Shown: one piece after another, positions 660 through 32,000 of the stretch
How the letters are laid out: the number at the start of each line of letters is the position of its first letter
How positions within the stretch are numbered: position 1 is the first letter of the stretch
Origin: Planctopirus limnophila DSM 3776
Lineage (GTDB): Bacteria; Planctomycetota; Planctomycetia; Planctomycetales; Planctomycetaceae
Assembly (NCBI RefSeq): GCF_000092105.1
Contig: NC_014148.1
Location: 2,040,001 to 2,072,000 of the forward strand
Direction: 5' to 3'
Length of the DNA stretch: 32,000 nt
Notes under the pieces: model-generated
Told to the model about the DNA's origin: nothing
The model's input: only the letters and a program-made list of their open reading frames with translations
Database searches by the model: none
Program-made: the position numbers and the translations under genes

Positions 660-3600
660 TCAGGAATGCATCTCAGCAACTGGATTGTGATTACTCATCG
701 TGGGTAAAGCCTGTTCTTCCGAGGTGACCTGTGGGATTTCGAACCACCGGTAAATCGCTGGCAACACCAACAATGTCAGTGCCGTACACGTGACTAAACC
801 ACCGATCACGACAGTGGCTAAAGGCCTTTGAACTTCAGCTCCAGCGCTCCCAGAGACCGCCATGGGTACAAAGCCGAGTGCCCCGCAAATCGCGGTCATG
901 AATACAGGTCTCAATCGATCCATCGCCCCGGTCACCACTGCGGTTCTGGAATCCAGGCCATGCAGATACAGATGCCGGATATGTTCGATCAGCACGACAC
1001 CGTTCATCACGGCAATGCCAAACAAGGCGATGAAGCCCACGCCTGCCGAGATCGAAAATGGCATCCCCCGCAACCAGAGGGCAAAGATCCCTCCAGTCGC
1101 AGCGATAGGCACATTCAGGTAGATCAGCAGAGTCAGTCGCACAGATCCAAAGGTCACATAGAGCAGCGAGAAAATCAGAAAGAGCGCCACCGGTACGGCA
1201 ACTGCCAGACGCGCAGAAGCCTGCTGCAGATTCTCGAACTGCCCACCCCATTCGAGTGCATATCCGGGTGGCAGTTTGATCTGCTGATCGACAATCTTCT
1301 GAGCTTCGGCCACAAAGCCACCCAGATCTCGGCCGCGTACATTGCATTGAATGAGTAATCGGCGACGAATCGAATCTCGACTGATCTCTGAGGGCCCGTC
1401 TTCCAACCGGATATCAGCCAGTTGTGAGACAGGAATCTGCCGACCCTGAGGATCAGAAATTTTGAGTTCTTTCAGTTGATCAATATCCACCCGCCATTGA
1501 GGGGCCAGTCGCACCTGCATCGGGAATCGCTTCTGGCCCTCAAACACTTCTCCGACAGGGACGCCCCCCACGGAACTGATTGCAGCCAGCACATCGCTGG
1601 AGTTAATGCCGTAACGGGAAATGGCATCACGCCGAATGATGACTCGCAGATACGGCAATCCAGCAACCTGTTGAGCCTGAACATCGGCCGCGCCGGGAAC
1701 CTGACTGAGAACCCGGACAATTTTGTCTCCTTCGAGTTTAAGTGTGTTCAGATCGTCTCCAAACAGACTGAGACCGATATCGGATCGCACACCAGCCACC
1801 AGTTCCTGAACTCGCAGTTCAATCGGTTGAGTAAAGCTGAACGAGTTGCTGGGGACCGATTTTTCCAGAGCCTCCTGCATCTGTTCAATCAACGTGTTTT
1901 TCTCAATCGCTTCAGGCCACTCATGAACGGGTTTCATGCGCACGAAAACATCGGTCTGATGCACACCCATGGGGTCGTTGGCAATTTCCGGACGGCCGGT
2001 TTTCGAGATAACCGATTCCACCTGCGGGAACTGGAGCAACGTGCGCTCCATGGCTTTGGTCATTTCGATTGAAGCTTCTAAAGAGACGCTCGGAAGCCGT
2101 GTGGCTTGAATGGCGATATCGCCTTCATCCAGCTTGGGGACAAATTCGACGCCAAAGCCCAGCGAAACCAGCACGCTGGCCACAAACAAGAGAACTGCTC
2201 CACTGAGCATGAGCACGGGCCGGGCCATCGAAAAATGGAGCATCGGCTCATAAGCAGCTTTTAACCACCGGACAAGAAATGTTTCTTTCGAACTGATGTT
2301 TCGAGCCAGAAATAGTGAAGCCATCACAGGCATCACAGTCACAGCCAGGATCAATGCGCCGGTGAGTGCTGACATGAAGGTAAACGCCATGGGTCGGAAC
2401 ATCTTCCCCTCGACACCTTCCAGACTCAGGATGGGCAGGAAGACAATGATCACAATAATTCCCGCAAACAGAATCGGAGTTCCCACCTCCTTTGCCGATG
2501 CGACGAAGACTTCTTTGGGAACGCGTTTGCTCCCCGTGGTCTGCTGGTATCGGCTTGCTGTGCGGACAGCATTCTCGATCATCACCACGGCACCATCGAC
2601 AATCACACCGAAGTCAACGGCACCCAGGCTCATCAGGTTGGCCGAGACACCGGCGAGCGACATAGCGATCAGTGCAAACATGGCGGAGAGGGGAATTGCC
2701 GAGGCCACAATCAGGCCGGCGCGGACATCGCCCAGGAGCAGAAAGAGCATGATCACCACCAGCAGCACGCCCACGCCGATGTTCTCAGCAATCGTATGGA
2801 TCGTCTTTTCGACCAGCTCCGTCCGGTCGTAGAACGTGTCGATGTAGACACCTTCCGGCAATGTTTTTTCGATAGCATGAATCTTTTCTTTGACATCTTC
2901 GACAACCTGCCTGGAGTTGCCCCCCATGATCATCATGACCATGCCCGTCACCGCCTCACGGTTTCCATCACGAGTGACTGCGCCTTGTCTGAGCATGGGG
3001 GCGAATTGAACATTGGCAATATCGGAAATGCGAATTGCCGTTCCATCGCTGCGGGCTTCTAAGACAATCCGGCGAATATCATCCAGTGAGGTGACAAGTC
3101 CTTCGCCGCGGATCAGGCGCTGTTCGCTGCCATGAGCAATGTAGCCACCACCAGCATTGGCGTTGTTTTCTTCCAGAGCCTGGAAAACGCGACTCAGACT
3201 GATGCCATAATTCAGAAGTTTGTGGGGATCGACCTGAATCTCGTAAGTTTTCAGTTCACCGCCAAAAGTATTGACTTCGATCACGCCGGGAATGCTTCGA
3301 AGCTGAAAGGCAATTTGCCAGTCCAGAATGGTGCGAAGATCCATCAGGCTGTGATTGAAGCCCGGTTTGGAGCGAACTTCGAACTGATAGATTTCACTCA
3401 TGCCGGTGGCAATGGGCCCCATCTGCGGGTCACCCATTCCTGGTGGTATGTTCTGCCGGGCCTGGAGCAACCTTTCATTGACCAGATTGCGAGCCCAGTA
3501 GATATCCGTGCCATCCTGAAATGCAACGGTGACTGCCGAAAGACCAATGCGGCTGATCGAGCGAATTTCCTGAATGCGGGGCAGGCCGCTCATGGCGTTT

Positions 3601-17558: not shown

Positions 17559-17611
17559 GGTGGCACAGGTTGGTCGGCGGCGACCTACCTGTGTGCCGCA
17601 GGCAGAAGAGG
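17559..17611 (-). repeat. Hairpin repeat, type 1, copy F (inverted relative to copies A-C)
   Basis: GGTGGCACAGGTTGGTCGGCGGCGACCTACCTGTGTGCCGCAGGCAGAAGAGG aligns with the reverse complement of 30405-30457. The first 14 nt are identical, and the GCGACCT, GTGTGCC and GAGAAG-like blocks are shared. Confidence 0.75.
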
Positions 17612-17838: not shown

Positions 17839-20800
17839 TTAAATTCCACCCAGCTTCTTCAACAGCTTCAATAGCGTCGGTTTCTTCACCTGATCGGCTG
17901 TCACGAAGCTGAGTTTGATGACTTGTTCGCCATCCGAGTTGGTTTCAATCGCGGGGTCTTCACCCAGGTCGCGGATTTCTCCCAGGGTGATGGGTTTGCT
18001 GCCGGCGGTTCCTGCAGGGGCGAAGAGTTCAAGATCGAGGCTGCCAGTGCGTTTCGTAATGATGTTCGCCAGGACGCGGGGCTTCGCACCGGCTTTGGCG
18101 TCTGCCTTGGCAGGAACCACGCGGTACTTCACCAGCATCTTCTGCGTCCAGTCAACTTCCGCCGCCGGGAAGGTGGTCTCCATCAATTCAAACAGAGCCT
18201 CGGCAACGGCCGGTTCCCAGAGCACTTTCCCCTTCAAAAAACCTTTCCGCATGACGTGCCATTTGCGACCCAGTTTCTTCCAGGGCATCAGGTCTTCGGG
18301 ATTCGACGCCTCGGCTTTTTCGCCCAGCGAAAGATAGCTGGCCAGTGCCTCTTTGAAGAAGCTGGCGAAGGCAGGTGTGGCGACATCATCAGCCTTCGCC
18401 AGAGAGATCGTGACCTCCTGCAAGCCCCCCGCCATAGCCTTCACCCGGACTCGCTCGGCCCGGTTGTAAATGGGGAGTTCATCGAGATCGTCGATATCGA
18501 GAAGATCGAGAGATTCAGCGAGTTCCGTCTGGTCGAACGTCCCCTTCGCCACGCGGAACTTGGCCTGCAGCAGCCATTCATCGCCCGTCAGTGCATGAAT
18601 AAACCAGCTGGGAATCCCTTTCGATTTAGCTTCAATCACACTGCGATCATTCCAGACAACAGTGACGCCTGAATCCTCCTCTAACGGTTCAAAGATCGTT
18701 TCCAGAAGCGAGACAGGCCATTTCGCAGGACGACCCGAATTGGCCAGGTGATCGACCAGATGCCACTTGCGGCCATCGACCTCCCAGGGCATTTTGGCAC
18801 TCTTGCCGAGCGACTTGAGATCAAGATCATCCCGTCGGCGCGCGAGGGCGGCCTTCGCATCAAAGACTTCGCGGGCTCCCTTGCGGCTCGCTTCCAGAAC
18901 CGGGGCGAGACATTGAGCAGTCAACGAGACATGCTGCTGAGGATTTTTCTTCGATGGGTCATCATCTGGAACTTCCCCTTGAGCGATGCGGACGAGATCT
19001 TCAGGAGTTCCCGTCGCCACGATGTAGCCCCCTTCGCTGCCGGCAGCGGGGCCGAGATCAACAATCCAGTCGCAGGTTTTGATCACATCGAGGTTGTGTT
19101 CAATGACGACGACGGTATTCCCCGCATCGACCAGGCTTTGCAGGATCTTGAGCAGCTTGCGGATATCATCAAAATGGAGGCCTGTCGTTGGCTCATCCAG
19201 CAGGTAAAGGGTGCTGCCAGTACTGGGACGGGCGAGTTCAGCCGCGAGCTTGACGCGCTGGGCCTCGCCGCCGGAAAGGGTCGGCGCAGGCTGGCCGAGG
19301 GTCAGATAACCGAGACCAATCGCATCAAGAACTGCCAGCGGCCCGCGAATTTTGGGGAAGCTCTCAAACAACTTGACGGCTTCGGAAATGGGCATCTCAA
19401 GCACATCGGCAATGTTCTTCCCCTGGAACTTGACCGCCAGAGTTTCAGGATTGTAGCGGCGTCCGTGGCAGGTATCGCACTCGACCCAGAGATCGGGGAG
19501 GAAGTGCATTTCAATGAGTTTCTGGCCATTCCCTTCGCAGGTCTCGCAGCGACCACCAGCCCGGTTGAAGCTGAAGCGGGCGGGTCGATATCCGCGCACC
19601 TTTGATTCAGGAAGATGAGCAAACAGCTCACGAATGTGTTCGAAGACGCCTGTATAAGTCGCGGGGTTGGAGGCAGGGGTGTTTCCGAGTGGCTGCTGAT
19701 CGACAACAATCAACTTGCTGAGGTAATCCAGCCCGAGAAGTTCATCGTATGGCCCGGGCTGTTCGCTCGAACGATGCAGTTTGCGGGCAATGGCTTTGCC
19801 GAGAGTGTCGGCGATCAAGGAGCTTTTGCCACTTCCGGACACACCCGTGATGGCTGTCAGTGCCCCCAGAGGAATCCGCAAATCAACATTGCGAAGATTG
19901 TTCTGGCGGGCCCCAATCAACTCCAGCCAGAAGAGAGGCTTGCTTGCAGAAGCCTTGGTTGTGGCTGCCACCTGAGCCTTGGCCTTCCCTTTCGTCGCAG
20001 CACCTGATTTCGCCCGATCAACTGGTGCCTGGCTTCTGCCAAACCTCGCAGGGACACGGCGTTCGGTCGGAACGAGAATATCTTCCTTAAGAGAGAGAAA
20101 TCTGCCCGTGAGCGAGTCGTCGCAGTGTTCGATCTCGTGTGGTGTTCCTTCCGCTGTGACAAGGCCACCCAACCTGCCAGAACCGGGGCCGAAATCGTAC
20201 AATCGATCGGCGGCTGCGAGAACTTCGCGATCATGCTCGACGAGCACCACAGTGTTGCCAAGATCGCGCAGCTTCTTCAGTGCCTGCAGCAGACGCCCGT
20301 TATCGCTGGGATGCAGCCCGATGGTCGGTTCATCGAGAACATACAGCACACCTGTCAACGCCCGGCCCAACTGACCCGCTAATCGAATCCGCTGGCTTTC
20401 TCCGCCGGATAGCGTCGGAAGTGTGCGGCTCAAGGTGAGGTAATGCAGACCGACATCAACCAGAAAATCAAGGCGACCAGCCCCTTCTTCCAGCAGGTCT
20501 CCCGCGATCTTCTGTTGGGTTTTGTTGAGTGTAAGTCCATGCAGAAACTCTTGAGCTTTATTGAGTGGCAATTCGCACAACTGCTGCAAAGTCTTCCCTT
20601 GCAGGCGCACGGCAGAGGCATCTTCTCTCAAGCGGCTGCCACTGCATGAAGAGCAGGGAACTTCACCAATCAAATCGAACAGCGATTGGCGGAATGAGTA
20701 CGAAACGCGTGAGGCTTCTTCGAGAGCCGGGTACAGCCCTTTGAACTGGAAGCGGTATTTGACGGCTTGATCGGCCGTGGATGATTTCTTCGATTTCGCT

Positions 20801-23800
20801 GCTGCTTTGGTGCTCGACTTTTTGGCCGCTGCGGGCTGAGCCACCTGGTAAACCGTGAACCACTGCTCGCCAGCCCCGAAGAGAACCAGTCGCTGCTCAG
20901 CCGGTTCGAGCTGATTAAATGGCGTGTCGAGCGAAAGGCCGACTCCCCGGCTCAGGGCGTCCAACAGTTCGAACATTGCGGGAGATTGCCGAGGGTCTGG
21001 CCAGGCCGAAATGGCTCCTTCGCGTAAAGTTCGTGTGGGATCACCAATGAGAGCCGCAAGGTTCGTGCCCTGCTGAGTGCCCAGACCTTCACAGCTTTCG
21101 CACCATCCCAAGGGACTGTTGAACGAGAAGTTGTGTGGTGCCAATGTCTCAAAACTTCTGCCGCATTGCGAGCAGGCACGAAACAGACTGAAGGGCTGAA
21201 CTTTCCACGAGTTCTCCGGCTTGTCGTCATCGACGAAGGCGACACGAATCACGCCTTTGCCCTGATCAAAGGCTGCCTCGACAGAATCAGCCAGACGGCG
21301 GCGGCTGCCCGAGGCAATCGTGACGCGATCAATGACAATTTCGACGACATGCTTTCGCCGGCGGTCGATTTCGGGAACTTCTTCCAGTCGATAGGTGGTG
21401 CCGTCCACACGTACCCGGCTGAAGCCCTGTTCTTTCAGCCGTTCCCACACTTTGGCGTACTGCTGGCCAACGGGAACTTCCTGCGGTGCCAGAACCAGCA
21501 GTCTGGTGCCTTCCGGCTTGGCCATGAGGAGATCGATCACATCGTCGGTGGTTTGCGATTCCACCGCGATGCGACAGTCGGGGCAATGTTGCGTTCCCAG
21601 GCGGGCATAGAGGACACGCAGATAATCGTAAATTTCCGTCGTGGTGCCGACCGTCGAGCGCGGCGTGTGGCCGACCGTCTTCTGCTCAATCGCAATCGAA
21701 GGCTGAAGACCGTGAATATGCTCGACTTTGGGCTTGGGCATCTGACCAAGAAACTGCCGGGCATACGACGAAAGGGACTCGACGTATCGCCGCTGGCCTT
21801 CCGCGTAGAGCGTATCCATGGCGAGTGACGTTTTGCCGGAACCACTGGGGCCACAGAAGACACTCATCTGATCGCGAGGGATATCGAGACTGATTTTCTG
21901 CAGGTTGTGCTGGGAGGCCCCGCGAATGACGATGTTGGTCTGTGCTTCACGGTCTTGCTGCTTGAGTGGCAAAGCTGCTTGCCAGCGGGAAGGTGAAGCG
22001 ACTTTTGTCTCAGGAGGAAAAGTTCGAGCCACACTTTTTTGTGGCATCTCAACCACGTGATCTGCCGTGCTTTTGCGTCTTTTCTTCGTTCCCTGCCCCT
22101 TGCCAGTGGAGGTGGCTGCGGACCCCAGTGAAACGGGCTGAGATATTGATCGACCGCTCGCCTCAAGGACTCTGGCCAGAAAGCGACCCGTGTATGAGGC
22201 CTCACATTGGGCCACCATTTCTGGTGTCCCCTGTGCGATAATCCTGCCACCACCTTTGCCACCTTCGGGCCCCAGATCGATCACCCAGTCGGCCGTCTTG
22301 ATGACATCAAGATTATGCTCCACGACAATGACGGTATTCCCGGCATCCACAAAGCCATGCAACACCCGCAGCAGGTGGGCGATATCAACGAAGTGCAGGC
22401 CAGTTGTCGGTTCGTCGAGAATGTAGACGGTTTTGCCAGTGCTGCGTTTGCCAAGTTCTTTCGCGAGTTTAATCCGCTGAGCTTCACCACCAGAGAGGGT
22501 AGGAGAGGGCTGCCCCAGCTTGATGTAGTCGAGGCCCACATCGTGCAAAGTCTGCAGCAGATTTTTGATCTTGGGGAGGTTTTCAAAATGTTCAAGTGCC
22601 GTCTGAACATCCATATCGAGGACTTCAGCAATGTTCTTACCCTTGAAACGCACCTCCAGCGTCTCTTTATTAAATCGGCGTCCCTGGCAGACCGGGCAGG
22701 TCACCCAGATATCGGCAAGAAAGTCCATTTCAAGCTTGTTCGAACCATGCCCTTCGCAGGCCTCGCAACGACCGCCAGGGACGTTAAAACTGAAGCGTCC
22801 CGGCTTAAACCCGCGGGTTTTAGAATCGGGAAGTTGTGTGTAAAGATCACGAATCAGGTCGAAGAGTTTGACATAGGTGGTAGGGTTCGACCGGGGTGTA
22901 CGACCAATCGGTGACTGATCAATATCGATGGCCTTATCGACCAATGCGAGATTGTCAAAACTCTGATGAGCACCGGGAGCACCTTCACCAAGATTGACTT
23001 CGCGATTGAGCAGCGGCCACAGAATATCGTTAATCAGCGAGCTCTTCCCTGAACCGGAAACACCGGTCACGCAGATGAACTTCCCCAGTGGAAACTCGAC
23101 ATCGACATTTTGCAGGTTGTGATGCGTGCAACCTTGTATCGAGATGGATGTTCCTATTCCTGAGCGACGTGTTTCGCGGATTTCGATCTGCTTGCGGCCG
23201 GAGAGATAAGCTCCCGTTTCACTTTCTTCATTCGCCAGAAGTGCCTCAAGACTCCCTTCATGAACAACTTTTCCACCACGAACACCGGGGCCGGGGCCAA
23301 AGTCGATAATGTGATCGGCAGCCTTCATCGTTTCATCGTCATGCTCCACCACGATCACGGTATTACCCTGATCGCGAAGATCCTGCAGGCTCCCCAGCAG
23401 CATTTCGTTATCGCGAGGGTGCAGGCCAATCGATGGTTCATCGAGAATATAAACCACACCCACAAGGCCACAGCCAATCTGCCCAGCCAGACGAATCCGC
23501 TGACTTTCTCCACCACTGAGCGTCGGTGCCGTCCGATCCAGCGCGAGGTAATCGAGACCGCAGCGCAAAAGAAAACCCAGGCGGCCACGAATCTCTTTAA
23601 GAACTTCTTCAGCGATATATTGCGAAGTCGGATCCAGATCGAGCTGTTCAAAAAACTCGAAAGCTTCACCCACACTGAGATGGCAAACCCCAGGAAGTGA
23701 CAGACGCTGTTTTTTCGCCTGGGAAGCCGCCGATGAGGAACCGCTGCGTGCTATCGCCGGCGTAGTCATCTCCAATGCTTGGCTGGAGATAAAATAGTTG

Positions 23801-25143
23801 CAGGCCTGAGCGTTGAGTCGCGAACCGTGGCAAGTGCTGCACCCCACGACTTCCATATACTTTTCAAGCTGCCTGCGGCGCATCGGGTTTTTGGCTTTAC
23901 GGTACTCTTCGAGCAGTTCGCGGACATAGCCTGTGTACTTCCCACCATGCTTCCACACTCCGCCCGAGTGCTTGAAACTGTACGTCACATGCTGATTGCC
24001 CAGCCCATCCAGGAAGAGATCGCGCGCCCCCTGGGGCAGTTCATTCCACGGGGTTTTCAGGAACTCACCGGGCTTGAGGCTCAGTGTTTTTTCAATCGCC
24101 GCAGCCACGCCATCAATGAGATGCCTGCGCCAACGGCCCAGCTTGGAAAGTTTACCTGAAAGTGCGAGTGCTCCCTTCTGGATAGAAAGGGATTCATCGG
24201 GAATGAGCCGATCAAGTAAAAAATCGTGCCGCATCCCGAGACCGTTGCAGTCGGCACACATCCCTTGAGGGCTGTTGAAACTGAAAAGTTGCGGCGAGGG
24301 AGGATCGTAACTGATACCGCAATGGGTGCAGGCATAAGCCGTGGCAAAAAACTGTTCGCTCGGATTCTCCTGAGACGGCGAATCGTCTTCACTCTGAATA
24401 GCGGCAGAGAGGAATTCTTCGGGAGAATCCTGCAAAACAATGAGTTGCCCATTCGCCAGTTTGAGCGCATTTTCTACAGCTTCGGCCACACGCTGGCGAG
24501 TCGATTTCCCGGCCACCAGGCGGTCAATCACCACATCAATCGTGTGCTTCATCTGCTTATCAAGCTGCAGACTTTCGCTCAGCGAAATGAATTTGCCATC
24601 AACCCTGGCGCGGAGATAACCCTGCTTGAGAAGATCAACGAAAAGATCCTTAAACTCACCCTTCTGACGCTGAATGAGTGGTGCCAGGATCTGAAACTTT
24701 GTTCCGGCAGGTAAAATGAGAATCTGCTCGACGATGTTCTCAGGAGACTGGGAAGTGATCGGGCGATGGCATTGGTGGCATTCGGCTTGGCCAACCCGGG
24801 CAAACAGCACTCGCAGGTAATCGTATATCTCGGTGATCGTACCCACGGTACTGCGCGGATTTCGACCAGCCGTTTTCTGTTGAATCGAGATCGAAGGAGC
24901 CAGCCCGGTGATCGAATCGACATCCGGCTTGGGCATCGATCCCAGGAATTGCCTCGCGTACGTCGAGAGGGATTCGATGTACCGCCGTTGACCTTCGGCG
25001 TAGAGCGTATCAAAGGCGAGAGAGCTCTTGCCCGAGCCACTGACGCCCGTCATAACAATCAGTTTGTTCTTGGGCAAAACCAGGCTGACGTCACGCAGAT
25101 TATGTTCTCGGGCACCACGAATCGTGATTTCAGATCTGGTCAT
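17839..25143 (-). CDS. uvrA: Tandem UvrA-UvrA fusion protein with extra C-terminal region (2434 aa, four ABC ATPase modules)
   Basis: Unit 1 is residues 1-995 (22159..25143). It begins [16 protein letters not shown]...[36 protein letters not shown]. It carries [12 protein letters not shown] with [11 protein letters not shown], then [27 protein letters not shown] and [11 protein letters not shown]. Unit 2 is residues 1069-2085 (18889..21939). It begins [16 protein letters not shown]...[36 protein letters not shown]. It carries [12 protein letters not shown] with [11 protein letters not shown], then [27 protein letters not shown] and [11 protein letters not shown]. Both units keep the CxxC zinc modules and the segments at the positions of the UvrB-binding and insertion domains. 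The reading frame is uninterrupted. Confidence 0.95.
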
Positions 25144-25851: not shown

Positions 25852-27114
25852 ATGGACTCTGCAGGTACTGCCCGTGATGCGTTATCCGCTGCGATGGTTG
25901 AACGCGTACAGGGATTGCGTCTACCGCCACCCCCTGCCAATGCGGGAATCAACGCTTCCACCTCGATTGCCTGGCTGATTGCCACACTATCGATTTCTGG
26001 TTTCGTGTTTATCTTCCTGTTCGCCTTTGTCTACCAGGTGGGTGGCCCTCGCGGCAGCAATGCCCCAGCCTCGACGACCGTCGCTGGTGATGGGAAGACC
26101 ACAACTGCGGGGTCCAAAAAGGATCCCTCAGCTCCTGCAAACAGTGATGCCCGTCCCGTCGACGCTGCTGCTGTCGATCCGGAAGCGATGGTGCTCTTGT
26201 CACAGGGTTATATCATCCCGGAACAGCAGATTCTGGTCAGCCCGCAGGTGAGTGGCCGGATTATTGAATTGAACGTCAAGGAAGGAACTCGCGTGGAAAA
26301 AGGATTCGTCCTCGCGAAACTGGAACCCACGGAATATCGGGCTGATTATGAAGGAGCCAGAGCCAACGTGGCTGCTGCTGAAGCCAGGCTGGCTGAGTTG
26401 CGTGAAGGAAACCGGCCCGAGGAAATCGCTCAAGCTCAGGCCGAACTGGGCGAAGCCAAAGCGACATTAAAACAGCTGGAACAAACCTTCCGCCGCAATG
26501 CCGAGCTCTACGGACAAAAGATTCTCAACAAGCAGGAGTTTGAAGATTCGGAGTCACTGCTCATGGCCCAGGCCCAGCGCGTGCTCAAGCTGGAAGCGAT
26601 GGTCAAGCTGGCCGAAGATGGCTTCCGTAAAGAGCGGAAACTGGAAGGTGAAGCGAACCTGCATAAAGCGATGGCAGAACTGGAAAGAGCCAAGTGGCGC
26701 CTGGATAACTGCACGATCGCGGCACCAATCTCCGGCACGATTCTGAAGAAAAATGCCGAAGAGGGGAACATTGTGAACCCCGTAGCTTTCAATGGCTCTT
26801 TCAGTTTGTGCGACCTGGCCGATCTTTCGAAGCTCGAAGTCGATCTGACCATTCAGGAACGGGATATTTCGAAGGTTTTCCCGGGCCAGAAATGCAAAGT
26901 CCGTTCGGAAGCTTTTCCCGATCGCGCTTACGACGGTGTGGTCTCACGATTGATGCCCATTGCAGACAGAGCCAAAGGGGCCATTCCTGTTCGTGTGGCG
27001 ATCAGTGTCCCAGCCGATGAAGAGGGCATGTACCTGAAGCCCGAAATGAGTGCCCAGGTGACGTTCTATGCCGGAAAAGCAGAAACAAAACCTGCCACGA
27101 TGAGTGCCGAATAA
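25852..27114 (+). CDS. HlyD/MacA-type periplasmic adaptor (membrane fusion protein, 420 aa) with no transporter partner in the window
   Basis: There is an N-terminal TM anchor (IAWLIATLSISGFVFIFLFAFVY). The lipoyl motif is ILVSPQVSGRIIELNVKEGTRVEKGFVLAKLE. A long coiled coil follows (ANVAAAEARLAELREGNRPEEIAQAQAELGEAKATLKQLE). The remaining blocks are TIAAPISGTILKKNAEEGNIV and the beta-barrel tail. Confidence 0.9.
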   Translation: MDSAGTARDALSAAMVERVQGLRLPPPPANAGINASTSIAWLIATLSISGFVFIFLFAFVYQVGGPRGSNAPASTTVAGDGKTTTAGSKKDPSAPANSDARPVDAAAVDPEAMVLLSQGYIIPEQQILVSPQVSGRIIELNVKEGTRVEKGFVLAKLEPTEYRADYEGARANVAAAEARLAELREGNRPEEIAQAQAELGEAKATLKQLEQTFRRNAELYGQKILNKQEFEDSESLLMAQAQRVLKLEAMVKLAEDGFRKERKLEGEANLHKAMAELERAKWRLDNCTIAAPISGTILKKNAEEGNIVNPVAFNGSFSLCDLADLSKLEVDLTIQERDISKVFPGQKCKVRSEAFPDRAYDGVVSRLMPIADRAKGAIPVRVAISVPADEEGMYLKPEMSAQVTFYAGKAETKPATMSAE

Positions 27115-27127
27115 TTCGCCAGATGGC

Positions 27128-27161
27128 GGGTGACCCCGACCGTCTCGCGGTTGGGTCACCC
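27128..27161 (+). terminator. Stem-loop just after the adaptor gene stop, a possible terminator
   Basis: GGGTGACCC (27128-27136) and GGGTCACCC (27153-27161) form a perfect 9-bp stem with a 16-nt loop. No T-run follows, so any terminator function is uncertain. Confidence 0.3.
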
Positions 27162-27391
27162 GGCGACAAGATGCCACACCCTGCGCGTGCCATGTTCGAA
27201 CACTTCGAATTAAGCAGAGCAATGTTTTGCTGGTAACCTTTGGGCATCAGGGAAAATTGTCCATCGACGATGAACCGTGTTTGATGCAGGTCATCCGGCT
27301 CTCCGGCTGATGGTGCACCTCGGTGAGGATTGACACGCAACGGCATGGGCTGTCGTGAGACTAAACAGCCTCTGGGCCCCTCTCTCCATGT

Positions 27392-27772
27392 TCACTCACC
27401 AACGCACCCTCTTGTGCCGCTGGCAGGCGGGTCGCTCGACGACCACGAGCAATCTGTACCACCCTGCGAAGTTAGGATTGGTGGCTCAGGCGTGCATTCG
27501 ATCGTGGGTTTGACTTGGCAGGTTTGTATTGCTGTTGCGGGGATGCTGATGTTCGCGGACAGGTTTCCTGGCGGTGTGGTCAGGGTTGTTGATCCCAGCG
27601 TAGCGCCGGATTGATCCTTCACCATGACGAGAGTGGGGGTGTCGTCGCTGGAATCACGGTAAACGGTGGCGGTGAGGGTGAGGTTGCCGGTGGCGGGTTT
27701 CAGGAGGGGGACCAGGGGGAAGCTGGCGGAGGGTGTGGCGGGGTTGGGGGTTTCGACAGTTCGTGTGGTCAT
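27392..27772 (-). CDS. Doubtful small T/P/S-rich ORF (126 aa); its 3' end is supplied by repeat copy A
   Basis: The beta-strand-like segment GNLTLTATVYRDSSDDTPTLVMVKDQSGATLGSTTLTTPPGNLSANISIPATAI looks protein-like. However, the whole region is C-rich and purine-poor on this strand, and that bias alone keeps frames open. The same frame is stop-free upstream to 27994 without any start codon. Confidence 0.25.
   Translation of the reverse strand: MTTRTVETPNPATPSASFPLVPLLKPATGNLTLTATVYRDSSDDTPTLVMVKDQSGATLGSTTLTTPPGNLSANISIPATAIQTCQVKPTIECTPEPPILTSQGGTDCSWSSSDPPASGTRGCVGE
27407..27468 (+). repeat. Hairpin repeat, type 1, copy A
   Basis: The sequence is CCCTCTTGTGCCGCTGGCAGGCGGGTCGCTCGACGACCACGAGCAATCTGTACCACCCTGCG. 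It shares its left arm and the GGTCGCTCGA core with copies B and C. It shares the right arm CCACCCTGCG with the type 2 copies. Confidence 0.75.
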
Positions 27773-27968
27773 GGGAGAGGCTTTTCGGGAATGGGGTGGG
27801 GAAAGGAGCGGGAGAGAAGGGGTTGGGGATGGGTTTGGTTCGAGGTGGATGGGGGAGGGAGTTGTGAAGAGCGGAAGGGAAATGGGAGAGGAAAAGAAAC
27901 CGGCCGCCAGGGATGACGGCCGGGGTTGAGGGGGTGGGGATGGAAATGGGTCAGGAAGGAAGTCTGAG
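27773..27968. repeat. Strongly strand-asymmetric low-complexity tract, G-rich on plus and C/T-rich on minus
   Basis: My hand count is about 103 G against about 17 C in 196 nt of the plus strand. Most of the C lies in one hairpin. G-runs are numerous, for example GGGGTTGAGGGGGTGGGGATGGAAATGGG at 27922-27950 and GGGAATGGGGTGGGGAAAGGAGCGGG at 27787-27812. The bias continues to about 27600. Confidence 0.85.
27886..27925 (-). terminator. Rho-independent terminator candidate on the minus strand, inside the C-rich tract
   Basis: On the minus strand CCGGCCG-tcatccctgg-CGGCCGG (27923-27900) is followed by TTTCTTTTCCTCT. It lies downstream of the orphan cassette's small gene. Confidence 0.45.
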
Positions 27969-28044
27969 TCGTTTTGAACTGGGTTCAGGTGGAGTCAGTG
28001 GGTTTCAGCAGGTCGCAGAAGAGACACTCGCTGGCCAACCAATA

Positions 28045-28098
28045 CCTCTTGTGCAGTTGGCATACAGGTCGCTCGAAGACGAGCAAGCTGTGCCACAC
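28045..28098 (+). repeat. Hairpin repeat, type 1, copy B
   Basis: The sequence is CCTCTTGTGCAGTTGGCATACAGGTCGCTCGAAGACGAGCAAGCTGTGCCACAC. It lies 36 nt downstream of the stop of minus-strand gene 28134..28442. Confidence 0.8.
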
Positions 28099-28133
28099 AG
28101 CATGCAAAGCCAAGATTGGGCCAGTCGGTCTGA

Positions 28134-28442
28134 TCAATTCCACACAAAACCACCAAATGCAAATGCCACATCATGAAGTCTAACCCAGTTTCGAATCTCC
28201 CACATGATCGCCTCTGGCTTCTCTTGGGGTTGGCTATCCAGGAACTCTTGAAGCAAGTCACGGATATTGTGGGCAACTTCACTACCGGTAACGCCTTGCA
28301 CCTCGCTTAGCGACTGGGCTAGAGAGGACATGCTTGGCTCTGATTGAATGCGACGTTTGAGCAATAGGTAATACTCAAGCTTCACCCCGTATAGTTCCAT
28401 AACATACTGGTGAATATCCGGCTTTTTGCGTGATCGTTTCAA
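28134..28442 (-). CDS. Small protein following the orphan RHS toxin (102 aa); putative immunity protein
   Basis: It starts at TTG 23 nt after the toxin stop on the same strand, with an alternative ATG at 28400 (MELYG). It has no signal peptide and is acidic. The segment SLAQSLSEVQGVTGSEVAHNIRD is loosely HTH-like. Support comes from position only. Confidence 0.45.
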   Translation of the reverse strand: MKRSRKKPDIHQYVMELYGVKLEYYLLLKRRIQSEPSMSSLAQSLSEVQGVTGSEVAHNIRDLLQEFLDSQPQEKPEAIMWEIRNWVRLHDVAFAFGGFVWN

Positions 28443-28465
28443 CTGTTATCTCCATGATTTGACAG

Positions 28466-30289
28466 TCAGTCAACTCGGTGTATTTCAAGACCTGATGGGT
28501 CTTCAACGTATATTTCGGGCCAGCCTCCCGGTCGTCCAATCGGATTATCTTCCGCTTTCTCAGCGGGCTGGATTCTAAATTTCTTACGAGGAATTTCCGC
28601 AGAAACAGTCCAGTCCGGCGTCGAGTTTCCAGCTGGAATTCCATATCGTTCATTAAAATTTGGAATGGTATCTGGGCGATTGTATGTCCAATAGCTGCCA
28701 TCTGGCTTGTTAAAGCCTGTCGTCCCTGATCGATAACAAGTCAACGATTTTGGGGTTTTGGGAATGCAGCAGGCTGCAATCTTCGGTAGCGTGCTTCGAA
28801 TGTTTCGAACAACTTCCCCAGCGCGTTTGTAGACGCTTTTTCCTATCGCGCTGAAACCACCGACGTCATTGACAGAATCCCTGACCAGATCCTTGGCCAT
28901 CTTGCAGCACTGGCCGTTTCGCTCCAAGCAATCCGAAAAATTATTGCTACTCCAGAGCTCTGACAATTCGGGCTTTAGTTGAGATTCCAAGAATTCCCAC
29001 ATCTTCTTCAACGCCTGGATTTCTCGGAGCCCTGAATAGACATCCCATGCCAGCCAGGCAGCGGCGATTATGTCCCCAATAGGTAGTGGGCCATCTGCTG
29101 CAAGCAAGATGGCTGATCGCGCTCCAGCTTTTAACGCACGTTTTCCAACTAGTGCTGCAATTTTTACTGACAACACTTGGAAAAGCGCCTCCCCGAAGGC
29201 TGCTCCCATATTACACCCGGCCAATCCAAGAGGATCGATCAAAGCCAGTGGGCGCCCGCTAACGTAAGAATAAAGATTGTTGCCTTCATCGAGGATATGT
29301 GGGTCACGAACCAGCCAGCCGATTAGTACGTGAAGCTGTCGGTATCGCACACAATACAAAGAGGTGTTTGTGTCAAAACGGTAGCCTGCATACAGTGTCT
29401 CCCATTCTAGAATATTTCCCGTCAAGCTAAAGGCGTCGTCTAGGAATGTGGCCATTCCGTAAGCGTCGTATTCGTATCTTGCATGAACAACGCCATCTGC
29501 TGCGACGACTACACTCGTATTCCAGTTGTCTTCTTGAAGTGAGTAGTGTCGAACAGCAGGAGGTTCGTCACTAATGATGCTTCGATCGCGTAGGATGAGG
29601 TCGTCCAGATACCTGGCTCCCCACACGAAGTGACTATTCGTACCTTCCAGTACACCTTTTAGTTCTTCAACACACTGCCAGGCATCGGTGAAGTAGGCGT
29701 GGGTGGTTTCATCGAGGGCGCCGGAGTTGTAGTTTTTGACGACGACTCGGAAGTTTCTCGCGTCGTATTGGTATTCGGCGACGGTTTCTAACGTGCTGGA
29801 GACTTCTTCCTCCAGTTTGACCAACCGGTTCCAGGCGTCGTAGGTGGCCGTGTAGGCTTCGTCCATCTGTTTGGGTTTGGGAATCGTGGTCATGTTGCCG
29901 ACGGCGTTGTAGGCCGGGTCGGCCCAGGCGCTGCCCACCGTGTTGGTGATGTCTGTGATTTCATTCACTGGGTTGGCAGTGCGTTCCTGTTCGATACTCC
30001 AGGTGGAGCCGTTATCGCTTTGCTTAAACCCTTCCCAGTTGCCAGTGGGGTCGAGGTTCCAATCCTGCTTGAACGCGGTGGATGCCAGAGCGGTTTGGGT
30101 GCCGTTGAGTGTGCCGCGGTGGGCGGTCTTTAACCGCTGGAGGCCGTCGTAGGTGTAGAGCCAGTCGTATTGGGCACTGTGGGCGGTGGCGATAGGGTTC
30201 TTCCGCCAGATGCGGTTCGAGGCGCGGTCGTAGCCGTACTTGATGCGGTCGAGATCGGTCCCCGCTTTGTGCCAGCGGTTGTCCTTCAC
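28466..30289 (-). CDS. Orphan, 5'-truncated RHS repeat protein fragment: about 356 aa of YD-repeat/RHS core plus a 251-aa C-terminal toxin region
   Basis: The YD repeats are YGYDRASNRI, YTYDGLQRL, ATYDAWNRLV, YQYDARNFRV and YEYDAYGMA. The core end is YAGYRFDTNTSLYCVRYRQLHVLIGWLVRDPHILDEGNNLYSYVSGRPLALIDPLGL, with DPLGL ending at 29222. The frame stays YD-like upstream of the GTG start (FFRLDRFGRVKDNRW) but meets a TAA about 14 codons further up. The usual >1000-aa N-terminal RHS shell is therefore absent. Confidence 0.85.
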   Translation of the reverse strand: MKDNRWHKAGTDLDRIKYGYDRASNRIWRKNPIATAHSAQYDWLYTYDGLQRLKTAHRGTLNGTQTALASTAFKQDWNLDPTGNWEGFKQSDNGSTWSIEQERTANPVNEITDITNTVGSAWADPAYNAVGNMTTIPKPKQMDEAYTATYDAWNRLVKLEEEVSSTLETVAEYQYDARNFRVVVKNYNSGALDETTHAYFTDAWQCVEELKGVLEGTNSHFVWGARYLDDLILRDRSIISDEPPAVRHYSLQEDNWNTSVVVAADGVVHARYEYDAYGMATFLDDAFSLTGNILEWETLYAGYRFDTNTSLYCVRYRQLHVLIGWLVRDPHILDEGNNLYSYVSGRPLALIDPLGLAGCNMGAAFGEALFQVLSVKIAALVGKRALKAGARSAILLAADGPLPIGDIIAAAWLAWDVYSGLREIQALKKMWEFLESQLKPELSELWSSNNFSDCLERNGQCCKMAKDLVRDSVNDVGGFSAIGKSVYKRAGEVVRNIRSTLPKIAACCIPKTPKSLTCYRSGTTGFNKPDGSYWTYNRPDTIPNFNERYGIPAGNSTPDWTVSAEIPRKKFRIQPAEKAEDNPIGRPGGWPEIYVEDPSGLEIHRVD

Positions 30290-30404
30290 GCGGCCAAAGC
30301 GATCGAGGCGGAAAAAGCCACTGCTGGAGGATTAGCCCCAGCAGTGGGAAAAAACTTCACGTCAATTGTCAAAGAGCAGAGAGATCAGGATGGAGGAGGC
30401 AAAA

Positions 30405-30457
30405 CTTCTCGTGCCGCTGGCACACAGGTCGCTCGATAACGAACAACCTGTGCCACC
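30405..30457 (+). repeat. Hairpin repeat, type 1, copy C
   Basis: The sequence is CTTCTCGTGCCGCTGGCACACAGGTCGCTCGATAACGAACAACCTGTGCCACC, with stem GGCACACAGGT / ACCTGTGCC. It lies between the stop of 30523..31074 and the truncated 5' edge of the orphan RHS fragment. Confidence 0.8.
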
Positions 30458-30522
30458 GAGCGGGTGGAAAATGTGGTGGTAGGCAACTGAGAAACAAAGG
30501 CAGGATGTAGCCTGCACTACGG

Positions 30523-31074
30523 TTAATCTCTCTCACCAATTTTGCCGTGTTTGTTAACTTCCAAAACGAATCTGCTTTCTCTTTCGGTTGTAATTTCGGC
30601 TATCGCACGCTGAGCGTATGAAACAAGAGTTTCATGCGATACTCCCGATCGACTGGCAGAATTCCATCTGTTTTCTATTTCCGCGGAAGCATCATTGAAG
30701 CCTCTTTCATAAAACTCAAACATCACGCCGTTGGATTGACCCGAATGAAACAAAAGTCGTTCGGTATTTCCTGCAATCTTGTTTTCAAGCGACGCTTGCC
30801 ATCCATAGAAGTGGCCTTCATACCAGTCAGATTTTCCAAGACGAAGAATTGGTGGCTTCTGTCCATCTTTGTCGCTATTTGATACGATACTAGTTGGAGG
30901 GATGTCTGAGGGAGCTGTTAAATCTTGCGGATAGGAGAAAATGATTTCTCGGTCTTCTCCTCGTGTCTGTCTGCCGCTTGACGTGTCGCATCCTGTCTGT
31001 ATGAACGCTGTCAGCGCAAACGCCATTGAAAGACATCGGCCATATTTACAAAAACTATTTACTCTTGTTTGCAT
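30523..31074 (-). CDS. Putative lipoprotein-type immunity protein for the upstream RHS toxin (183 aa from ATG 31074)
   Basis: MQTRVNSFCKYGRCLSMAFALTAFIQTGC looks like a signal peptide with an imperfect lipobox (QTGC). GGGGAG lies 6 nt upstream of the ATG at 31074. The start overlaps the last 20 nt of the toxin gene, which suggests translational coupling. The track ORF extends to 31176 inside the toxin gene. Confidence 0.55.
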   Translation of the reverse strand: MQTRVNSFCKYGRCLSMAFALTAFIQTGCDTSSGRQTRGEDREIIFSYPQDLTAPSDIPPTSIVSNSDKDGQKPPILRLGKSDWYEGHFYGWQASLENKIAGNTERLLFHSGQSNGVMFEFYERGFNDASAEIENRWNSASRSGVSHETLVSYAQRAIAEITTERESRFVLEVNKHGKIGERD

Positions 31075-32000
31075 TCGCATCTCCCCATTCGGCTTGGCAA
31101 ACTGCACAGTAGGCAATCTCATTGAATCGCTTGTTATCTTCGTAAGATTTGATCTTCTCCTTAAACTCTTTGTCATTCTTCCTGAGAACTACCATTGGGT
31201 TAACGTTTCCAAATCCATTGTTTGCGTGATACCAAAGTGCATCATCAGGGTTGAAGTAGAAAAAGTCAAAATTGAAGTAGTCTCCAGCTGATGCAGGGGG
31301 CCTTGAGAGAATAGCGTTCCAGGTTTTCTTGCCATTCAGCGAGAATTTTCCATTTTTTTCATTAATTGCAATTTCACGAGCCCCTCCTGGAGTGCCGTTG
31401 TTCCAGACAATGGCTATCAATCTCGCTTCAGTTCTTGTTCCGTAAATGTTTGTTCCAAATCCTTTGCAACATTCTTTGGTTTCGTTCATGTCCTTCATTC
31501 GCAGTCGCGCCTGTTCAGGATCACGGTAGCAATGTTGTAAATCTGGCAAAAACCCGTCTCGGAGCTCGAATCCGCTTGGGTTGAGTGTGTATCCGGGGAA
31601 GCCGAGCATGCAGAAAGTTACGCCAATGCAGCCGGCTTGTGCAGTATTTATAAAGTGGCCCTTTGGGATTGATGTTTTCACAAGTTGAAAGTTTTTATTC
31701 TGCCATTGAGATAGGGTATCCCATGGGAGCAGATTTTCTGACCATTCGTCCCACCATTGATCAACTGTCAAAACATCAAGACCATAAGGGTCAATAGTGT
31801 TCAATTGATTGACACGCTCATAGAGGGAGAGTCCGTCGACGTATCTCAATGGATCTCTTCGTGTCCATTTCCCTAACTTGAAATGCAAACATCGGTAGCG
31901 GGAATCATAAATCTTTGTGTGCAGATCGTAATGTGAGCCTCCGTATGCGACGATCCATTTGTTTGTGTTAGCTGAAGATGAGAAAATTAGATCTAGTTGT
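31055..32000 (-). CDS. C-terminal end of an RHS repeat protein (continues beyond the window end) with a 240-aa Cys/His-containing toxin domain
   Basis: The frame is open from base 31999 with no stop upstream of the track's TTG. It reads ...WIVAYGGSHYDLHTKIYDSRYRCLHFKLGKWTRRDPLRYVDGLSLYERVNQLNTIDPYGL, which is the RHS-associated core end; DPYGL ends at 31778. The CT domain contains NTAQAGCIGVTF and DALWYHANNG. Confidence 0.85.
   Translation of the reverse strand, partial: QLDLIFSSSANTNKWIVAYGGSHYDLHTKIYDSRYRCLHFKLGKWTRRDPLRYVDGLSLYERVNQLNTIDPYGLDVLTVDQWWDEWSENLLPWDTLSQWQNKNFQLVKTSIPKGHFINTAQAGCIGVTFCMLGFPGYTLNPSGFELRDGFLPDLQHCYRDPEQARLRMKDMNETKECCKGFGTNIYGTRTEARLIAIVWNNGTPGGAREIAINEKNGKFSLNGKKTWNAILSRPPASAGDYFNFDFFYFNPDDALWYHANNGFGNVNPMVVLRKNDKEFKEKIKSYEDNKRFNEIAYCAVCQAEWGDANANKSK

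Follow-up and report, generated by a model that had tools for sequence, protein, structure and literature searches.

The 32,000-nucleotide (nt) stretch of Planctopirus limnophila DSM 3776 analysed here (contig NC_014148.1; 'the window') carries on its minus strand Plim_1600, a truncated rearrangement hotspot (RHS) gene with a toxin tip of its own, followed by the small gene Plim_1599. The pair is probably a silent reservoir of a toxin tip and its immunity gene, detached from the full-length rhs gene and graftable by recombination. It makes up one of two modules in an array, the second and the more deeply truncated one, Plim_1602/Plim_1601 being the first, and the array sits in a housekeeping neighbourhood, apart from any full-length rhs gene. 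The full-length protein of the strain, ADG68886.1 (P0125, 2003 amino acids, aa), serves as reference throughout. The parts of the second module are as follows.

28466-30289, minus strand: Plim_1600, orphan RHS open reading frame (ORF), truncated core plus toxin tip, 607 aa, GTG to TGA
29675-30309, minus strand: conserved core fragment, candidate recombination handle, about residues 1427-1639 of ADG68886.1
29222-29674, minus strand: divergent, low-GC last 151 shell residues, with Rhs_assc_core at 29222-29470 and DPLGL at 29222-29236
28469-29221, minus strand: C-terminal toxin region (CT), 251 aa (aa 357-607), with a helical, hydrophobic N-terminal half and a C-terminal toxin domain of about 80 aa (about 28469-28714)
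28134-28442, minus strand: Plim_1599, candidate immunity gene, 102 aa, TTG start, with an alternative ATG 14 codons in

The initial annotation, made from the sequence, had described a 5'-truncated core fragment with its own tip and a small partner, and this description is borne out. The ORF matches Plim_1600, annotated as a 'YD repeat protein', at 100%; TIGR03696 (Rhs_assc_core) is matched at aa 274-356 over the full model (1-76) with 36.7 bits (E = 4e-9), the NCBIfam cut-off being 32.5 bits; the sequence RPLALIDPLGL closes the core at aa 356, with DPLGL at aa 352-356 (nt 29222-29236); and the partner ORF at 28134-28442 is present and annotated as Plim_1599. As to the five tyrosine-aspartate (YD) repeats that had been counted, three are strict by the pattern Yx[YF]Dxx[G/S/N] (aa 18, 173 and 272), and five are reached only by adding the two degenerate copies YTYDGLQ and ATYDAWN. 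The Pfam model RHS_repeat (PF05593) gives 16 bits on Plim_1600, under its 22-bit cut-off; ADG68886.1 passes the same model with E = 7e-15. Residues 1-356 of Plim_1600 align with residues 1433-1790 of ADG68886.1. Plim_1600 has neither a complete shell nor an N-terminal plug/delivery region, about 1,430 residues of a protein of the ADG68886.1 type being missing, and this is the state expected of an orphan fragment. Its sequence matches in the PDB (TccC3, YenC2, Tse15 and teneurin) are weak and confined to the core end.

Where does the fragment begin? Upstream of the GTG, 14 more codons are open before a TAA closes the frame at 30332-30334, as had been noted. The view that this whole extension is YD-like does not stand, as only the last seven codons (LDRFGR) are RHS-derived; the remaining seven and the TAA lie inside a hairpin at 30318-30347, termed H2, and nucleotide homology to other RHS cores begins just after it, at 30309. 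The same junction is present in the syntenic orphan of Planctopirus hydrillae, which answers the concern that the TAA might be a sequencing error. The GTG had been taken as the start codon. It is instead an internal Val codon of a GRVKD motif; the syntenic orphan has GTC in this place, and elsewhere the codon reads GTA or GTG and is internal. The fragment is also a mosaic, with the first 27 residues or so of the Plim_2663 type and residues 28 to 205, approximately, of the main type. Plim_1600 is a genuine 5'-truncated RHS fragment that has no conserved translation start of its own.

The core fragment falls into two parts. Residues 1-205 show 90-92% protein identity to Plim_1602, ADG68886.1 and the P. 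hydrillae copies (89.9% over 205 aa for ADG68886.1), whereas over residues 206-356 identity does not exceed 52% for any of the 127 proteins gathered, and Plim_1602 (40%) and ADG68886.1 reach 40-42%. At the nucleotide level, five copies from related species are 86-91% identical to 30309-29675 over some 580-640 nt, and all five matches end at 29675-29683; from 29675 down to 28096, no match was found among the related copies compared. Runs of exact match within the conserved stretch reach 80-128 nt, which is more than the length that RecA-type recombination needs. Base composition changes at the same place, the shift in G+C content (GC) and in G+C at third codon positions (GC3) coinciding with the homology edge at 29675: 29675-30289 has a GC of 0.59 and a GC3 of 0.80, as against 0.48 and 0.46 for 29222-29674, 0.50 and 0.47 for the CT, and 0.47 and 0.50 for the partner gene. 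The conserved fragment has a ratio of nonsynonymous to synonymous divergence (dN/dS) of 0.05-0.12, with dS between 0.3 and 0.7.

Because identity, nucleotide match and composition all change at 29675, the candidate recombination handle is limited to about 635 nt (29675-30309), and the last 151 core residues, Rhs_assc_core included, belong to a foreign, low-GC, swapped tip. This redraws part of what had been proposed. A stretch of about 90% similarity that could offer homology for recombination is indeed retained, but its extent is not 29222-30333. The core stretch 29222-30289 had been called G+C-rich, and this is true of 29675-30289 but not of 29222-29674, which resembles the CT and partner gene. 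Likewise, the motif RYRxLH...G..W..RDP does occur at both core ends, but it is uninformative on a shared RHS lineage because it sits in the divergent part, where identity to Plim_1602 is 40%.

The orphan is set between structured, non-coding elements.

30404-30457, minus strand: repeat element E, copy C, a 55-nt imperfect hairpin repeat that opens a 150-nt module of E, leader and H2
30348-30403, minus strand: leader of the orphan 5' module, non-coding, with single-nucleotide indels between copies in the alignment
30318-30347, minus strand: hairpin H2, terminator-like, a 12-bp stem followed by CTTTTTCC, at the junction of module and core, with the in-frame TAA in its loop
28044-28096, minus strand: E copy B, 38 nt past the stop codon of the partner gene, the right-hand boundary of the replaced cassette
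27531-28043, minus strand: conserved tail after orphan arrays; 27900-27923 form a terminator-like hairpin, and a truncated ORF (27392-27772) has its 5' part here
27408-27462, minus strand: E copy A, where the tail homology stops
17560-17611, plus strand: a fourth E copy

Comparison of strains shows these boundaries at work. At the syntenic P. hydrillae locus (L001), the same E, leader and hairpin lead into an orphan with the same truncation point (…GLDHFGRVKDNRWHKAGTDLDRIKYGYD…), but the remainder of its core is Plim_2663-like and carries an in-frame stop, and its tip is unrelated. The two loci are 96% identical at the nucleotide level over 30314-32000 of the window, up to position 30314; similarity then resumes at 28062, inside E copy B. 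A second locus, downstream of a polysaccharide deacetylase gene, gives the same picture when P. hydrillae (L004) is set against the metagenome-assembled genome (MAG) GCA_006365015.1 (L007): the flank and 5' module agree at 95-100% and the core at 89-95%; identity then falls below 50% in the tip and immunity gene and recovers at E. In both pairs the left breakpoint falls within the core fragment and the right one at E or in the tail. The orphan protein of the MAG locus (P0004, 738 aa) is 98.3% identical to residues 1291-2003 of ADG68886.1, so the tip that an orphan carries in one strain is found in P. limnophila on the full-length gene. Tips and partner genes are thus replaced between strains at two loci, and the strain-to-strain rearrangement that the initial annotation had named as a check is visible both here and at the second locus.

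What does the tip encode? A word-indexed search of 5.8 billion proteins with the CT returned the identical fragment only, and an exhaustive HMMER search gave a single full-length match, P0130, at 46% identity, together with about 20 more proteins that share either the helical N-terminal half or the C-terminal domain of about 80 aa. Pfam, NCBIfam and PADLOC gave no meaningful match to the CT. Because the C-terminal domain is found at the C-termini of RHS proteins, among them one of 1865 aa and the full-length P0133, P0144, P0147 and P0135, as well as of RHS fragments, it appears to behave as a true polymorphic-toxin payload, a candidate toxin of a family that lacks a description. The invariant residues of the family are an R, G-x-P, GG and a C-terminal P, and Plim_1600 keeps them. 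The 402 codons that are unique to the cassette (aa 206-607) run without interruption.

Several observations on the toxin domain may be added. The family (28469-28714 in the window; P0131-P0148) follows the pattern (F/Y)R.G...YG(L/I)P..N...PDW...GG..E and occurs also on small secreted proteins. An AlphaFold2 model of the whole CT from the single sequence was poor, with a predicted local distance difference test score (pLDDT) of 46, and that of the toxin domain with an alignment was confident, at a pLDDT of 80. A Foldseek search of the latter model against the PDB gave nothing significant; matches to the ADP-ribosyltransferase (ART) domains of PARP10/14 had E values of about 2-4 and were not counted. 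The order of motifs recalls the NAD-using toxins of ART/TNT type, a likeness that is supported by no test. The gene for P0130 is itself part of an orphan array (1349-3169 of metagenome contig L008), with some 40 core residues before the CT; a gene for a 143-aa protein follows, and then a second core stub that begins at about residue 1486 of the full-length protein. This contig demonstrates that stubs of widely differing length exist in the lineage.

The partner gene Plim_1599 begins 24 nt past the stop codon of the toxin gene. Pfam, NCBIfam and PADLOC searches with its product gave no meaningful match. A full-length homologue with 74% identity and the same TTG start, but no toxin gene, was found in four metagenome contigs (L009-L012), and it looks as orphan immunity genes do. 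In L009 (133-1538), and in the other three contigs as well, this homologue stands in a run of small genes on one strand, the others encoding an ankyrin-repeat protein, a DUF5684 protein and ORFs of 69 and 65/102 aa; the run looks like a poly-immunity array.

The boundary elements recur with considerable regularity. None of the E copies in the window is expected by chance. At every locus retrieved, an E precedes each orphan and another follows each immunity gene, in direct orientation, and a homologous module of about 150 nt (E, leader and H2) lies 5' of nine of the nine orphans examined. The point where H2 meets the core is residue 1291 in seven copies; for Plim_1600 and the P. hydrillae orphan that corresponds to it, the point is about residue 1426. 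Pairing across copies amounts to 90% in the E and H2 hairpins, as against 36-46% in slid controls, and compensatory changes occur at six pairs, as against 2.3 +/- 1.0 in shuffles, although the copies are related and only about two independent events lie behind those of H2. The 236-nt intergenic region 5' of Plim_1600 holds three hairpins (z-score -3.2), two of which are terminator-like. The possibility that the leader is a conserved N-terminus was considered and rejected, given its 1-nt indels and the lack of conservation of start codons.

E itself is a dispersed repeat of about 55 nt that resembles repetitive extragenic palindromic (REP) elements; its consensus is GGTGGCACAGGTTGCTCGTCTTCGAGCGACCTGTGTGCCAGCGGCAC. 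An Rfam search of 27000-32000 at E <= 1 gave a chance snoRNA match only, and none for E. In the DNA sampled, which is biased towards RHS loci, E is strongly enriched at the boundaries of RHS cassettes, and at least three classes of longer composite repeats have it as their 5' part. Of the metagenome contigs scanned for E, only three carried it, all from one MAG; these are too few for a census, but they make clear that E is found outside RHS loci as well. The copies in contig L013 lie after three unrelated small genes (714-759, 1771-1815 and 2735-2778), and E also flanks an unrelated intergenic site. The tail of about 0.5 kb is common to arrays at different loci (L001, L002, L004 and L007; 86-88% identity), and a whole array plus tail is found at several unrelated loci. 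The tail is very C-rich on the coding strand and ends in the 5' part of a gene that begins MTTRTVETPNPATPS...; this gene encodes 226 aa in L002, and truncated forms of it are left elsewhere, with 126 codons in the window, 88 in L004 and 44 in L001.

The first module of the array reaches the edge of the window.

31055-32000, minus strand: 3' end of Plim_1602, the orphan that opens the array and whose product has 753 aa in total; 96% identical in nucleotides to P. hydrillae L001
30523-31176, minus strand: Plim_1601, so named from its position behind Plim_1602; a small gene, conserved in L001 (11667-12320), and the candidate for immunity in this module

The initial annotation had placed a full-length RHS gene upstream of position 32000. 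The gene there is Plim_1602, and its product is a 753-aa orphan fragment. Its homology to ADG68886.1 starts at residue 1291-1292, at FDAATSGN, and what precedes it, MKFTPPAGDHSPAGV, is not RHS sequence; in both P. hydrillae L001 and MAG contig L014 an alpha/beta hydrolase gene stands before the orthologue, and the 9.4 kb upstream of the orthologue in L001 hold no further RHS sequence. Because its homology begins so far into the protein and its orthologues follow a hydrolase gene, Plim_1602 itself is an orphan-type fragment and not the main RHS. Plim_1600 therefore has no co-oriented full-length rhs gene immediately ahead of it. The only full-length RHS identified in the strain is ADG68886.1, whose accession is 1,451 numbers from that of Plim_1602, and judging by accession order it would lie some 1,450 genes from the array. 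The tips of Plim_1602 and ADG68886.1 look related, with the motifs GC(I/V)G(V/L)T and NFD(F/Y) in common, and neither has a family match. As for Plim_1601, the likely start is the ATG at 31089 or an ATG a few codons upstream that overlaps the stop codon of the toxin gene. The gene overlaps the stop of Plim_1602, and the N-terminus of its product has a lipobox-like IQTGC (…AFALTAFIQTGC). The 217-aa sequence has no family match in Pfam, NCBIfam or PADLOC.

Short RHS fragments are abundant in metagenomes of Planctomycetaceae. A search gave 907 matches; homologues of 500-1000 aa number in the hundreds in the family, and many of the short matches are contig-end fragments. A common N-terminal boundary for these homologues was sought and rejected, as their homology starts scatter over residues 884-1453 of the full-length protein. 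Because the fragments are abundant and their truncation points scattered, the RHS orphan phenomenon is widespread in the family. Two P. hydrillae contigs (L002, 1-2073, and L003, 1-2190) start 23 codons past the orphan boundary, at residue 1314, where the assembly breaks at the edge of the repeated core; they hold either orphans or the 3' ends of full-length genes.

How might such a cassette be used? As it stands it would be untranslated, because it has no conserved start, three hairpins lie upstream, two of them terminator-like, and about 1,430 shell residues and any N-terminal delivery region are absent. RecA-type recombination or gene conversion could then act with the core stretch as left anchor and E or the tail as possible right anchor, and the outcome would be a tip and immunity gene grafted onto the full-length rhs gene. 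Meanwhile, Plim_1599 may protect against neighbours that deploy this toxin.

Several points weigh against a silent reservoir. The homology of Plim_1600 to ADG68886.1 within its own strain is given at the protein level, the nucleotide figures being from related species. If accessions follow gene order, the full-length gene is about 1,450 accessions off, and grafting would therefore need gene conversion and not a simple deletion as in Salmonella. An intact frame of 607 codons and a dN/dS of 0.05-0.12 also fit a translated gene. In the L004/L007 pair, however, flanks and module are near-identical and yet the core dS is 0.55, and this contrast points to re-import of cores along with tips from functional donors, which would explain the low dN/dS without translation of the stubs. 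E is not RHS-specific, so that its role as right anchor may be incidental. Finally, Plim_1599 is likely an immunity gene, but by its position only, and it gave no alignment with the gene beside the related toxin P0130.

A bolder form of the reservoir reading, put forward tentatively, is that in Planctopirus RHS tips are kept in portable, hairpin-bounded cassettes that have spread to loci far from a single expression gene, and that the 150-nt module is functional. The unit would then consist of the E/leader/H2 module, the core stub, the tip and the immunity gene, up to the next E. The role of the module could be to insulate or silence the stub; it could also, jointly with E or the tail on the downstream side, give a second homology arm for long-range gene conversion. 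The exchanged unit would extend beyond what follows DPxGL and include the last 60-150 shell residues or so, with the autoproteolysis domain.

Other explanations bear on the same facts. The cassette may be a relic, a truncated toxin gene in decay of which Plim_1599 alone is selected as an orphan immunity gene; this is a possible though rather unlikely account, and one that is compatible with a reservoir. It draws on the 74% identical toxin-less homologue among small genes (ankyrin-repeat, DUF5684), on the in-frame stop in the syntenic P. hydrillae orphan, on the 3'-truncated remnants that make up other array members (L002, L003 and L005) and on poly-immunity arrays beside Rhs loci, which are cited in the literature. 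But decay does not sit well with 402 unique codons that are uninterrupted and a toxin domain that retains the invariant residues of its family, and tips do pass between orphan and full-length genes. It is improbable, too, that an internal promoter and start yield a toxic C-terminal product to which Plim_1599 is the antitoxin, as in type II toxin-antitoxin (TA) systems. ORF and partner are both intact, and Salmonella offers a precedent, where transcription starts internally, 89 nt before the sequence that codes for PxxxxDPxGL, and the internal products made are toxic (PMC7043789). Unlike in Salmonella, other copies do not share the region upstream of DPLGL with Plim_1600, and a sigma-70-type scan, which leaves planctomycete promoter types outside its reach, gave no minus-strand promoter-like site in 28443-30520. 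The sole minus-strand promoter-like site of the area in that scan, 28442-28413, is inside the start of Plim_1599.

Could the fragments instead be proteins in their own right? Stand-alone RHS proteins of 600-750 aa that complete a shell with a separate partner, as TcC does with TcB, and so give combinatorial tips would fit the hundreds of homologues of 500-1000 aa in Planctomycetaceae, the low core dN/dS and the many orphan frames that are open through the leader. This is highly unlikely, however, as homology starts scatter from residue 884 to 1453, the start codon is not conserved, the leader has frame-breaking 1-nt indels and no signal peptide or N-terminal domain is present in the orphan; moreover, an unsplit form of 2003 aa has the same core, and many of the short matches are contig-end fragments. 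Slightly less credible still is site-specific shuffling, in which E and H2 would be recombination sites (attC-like or of the kind used by REP-associated tyrosine transposases, RAYTs) for a dedicated recombinase. Cassettes are each bracketed by directly oriented E hairpins, the E and H2 structures are conserved with compensatory changes, H2 abuts the core at two positions, and array plus tail occur at several unrelated loci. Against this, the 10 kb around the arrays in L001 and L004 are free of recombinase genes, E is also found beside unrelated small genes and at one unrelated intergenic site, the breakpoints are scattered through core and tail in both pairs, and the left ones, variable in position inside the core, show the gradual decay that is typical of homologous recombination.

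The silent reservoir has close relatives in Enterobacteria. The orphan rhs-CT/rhsI 'silent cassettes' of Dickeya dadantii (rhsC), Yersinia pseudotuberculosis and Salmonella Typhimurium (rhs-orphan) are the same kind of element as Plim_1600: a 5'-truncated rhs fragment with no dedicated initiation signal, a PxxxxDPxGL core end, a distinct CT and a small downstream gene, with tips that vary between strains within conserved flanks and the same tip on orphan and full-length gene (PMC3150448). Functionally, Plim_1600/Plim_1599 would by this analogy be an orphan rhs-CT/rhsI module as defined for Enterobacteria, minus adjacency to the full-length gene. The differences are also instructive. Enterobacterial orphans lie directly downstream of full-length rhs genes, and their divergence is abrupt right after DPxGL (PMC3150448), whereas the Planctopirus array is detached from the full-length gene, and divergence sets in about 150 residues before DPLGL in Plim_1600 and, by eye, about 60 before DPxGL between Plim_1602 and ADG68886.1. 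Each orphan here has, in addition, a structured 150-nt 5' module and a hairpin repeat after it.

Arrays of orphan cdiA-CT/cdiI pairs in contact-dependent growth inhibition (CDI) loci are alike in that truncated tip/immunity pairs stand in tandem, with short upstream coding homology, and there the toxin fragments have no initiation signals but the immunity genes may be expressed (PMC3150448). They differ in their scaffold, the CdiA filament with its VENN motif, and in their position downstream of cdiBAI; Plim_1600 belongs to an RHS shell with DPxGL. The main and orphan rhs TA modules of Salmonella (Starsta et al. 2020, PMC7043789) likewise combine an orphan rhs fragment, a CT and an immunity gene, and make a delivery-free function conceivable. 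In that system, function relies on a promoter inside the gene, conserved in main and orphan genes alike and placed 89 nt ahead of the DPxGL-coding sequence (PMC7043789); the equivalent region in Plim_1600 is non-conserved and has no promoter-like site in the sigma-70-type scan. REP-like repeats offer a parallel for E, as an imperfect hairpin of about 55 nt in many copies that is intergenic and usually lies just after genes. Unlike REPs, E is part of composite repeats of at least three classes, and no RAYT-type transposase was seen.

Orphan toxin-tip cassettes are an accepted route of weapon diversification in enterobacterial Rhs and CDI systems, and the same tip-storage logic would now be seen in Planctomycetota, where, to our knowledge, RHS delivery and competition are essentially unstudied. 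Full-text literature searches gave no description of RHS orphans in Planctomycetes or Planctopirus. The departures from the textbook case are of interest: storage arrays that are detached, an exchanged unit that reaches into the shell and includes the self-cleavage domain, and one structured boundary module per stub. If the hairpin module and E do guide or insulate exchange, they would provide a new handle on long-distance shuffling of polymorphic toxins. The tip, too, deserves attention, since the toxin domain that it bears is of a family seen again on full-length RHS proteins, one with neither a Pfam model nor a structural match.

The rest of the window is housekeeping in character, with genes for a resistance-nodulation-division (RND) pump, two HlyD-type proteins, ArgJ, a rhomboid protein, a lipoate ligase and a doubled UvrA; no secretion apparatus, type VI secretion system (T6SS) or vgrG genes are present in the window. 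The doubled UvrA (17839-25143, minus strand) is an ORF of 2434 aa. Besides some 500 further C-terminal residues that have no family match, it has several ABC ATPase sites and consists of two complete tandem UvrA units, UvrA_inter and UvrA_DNA-bind each matching twice.

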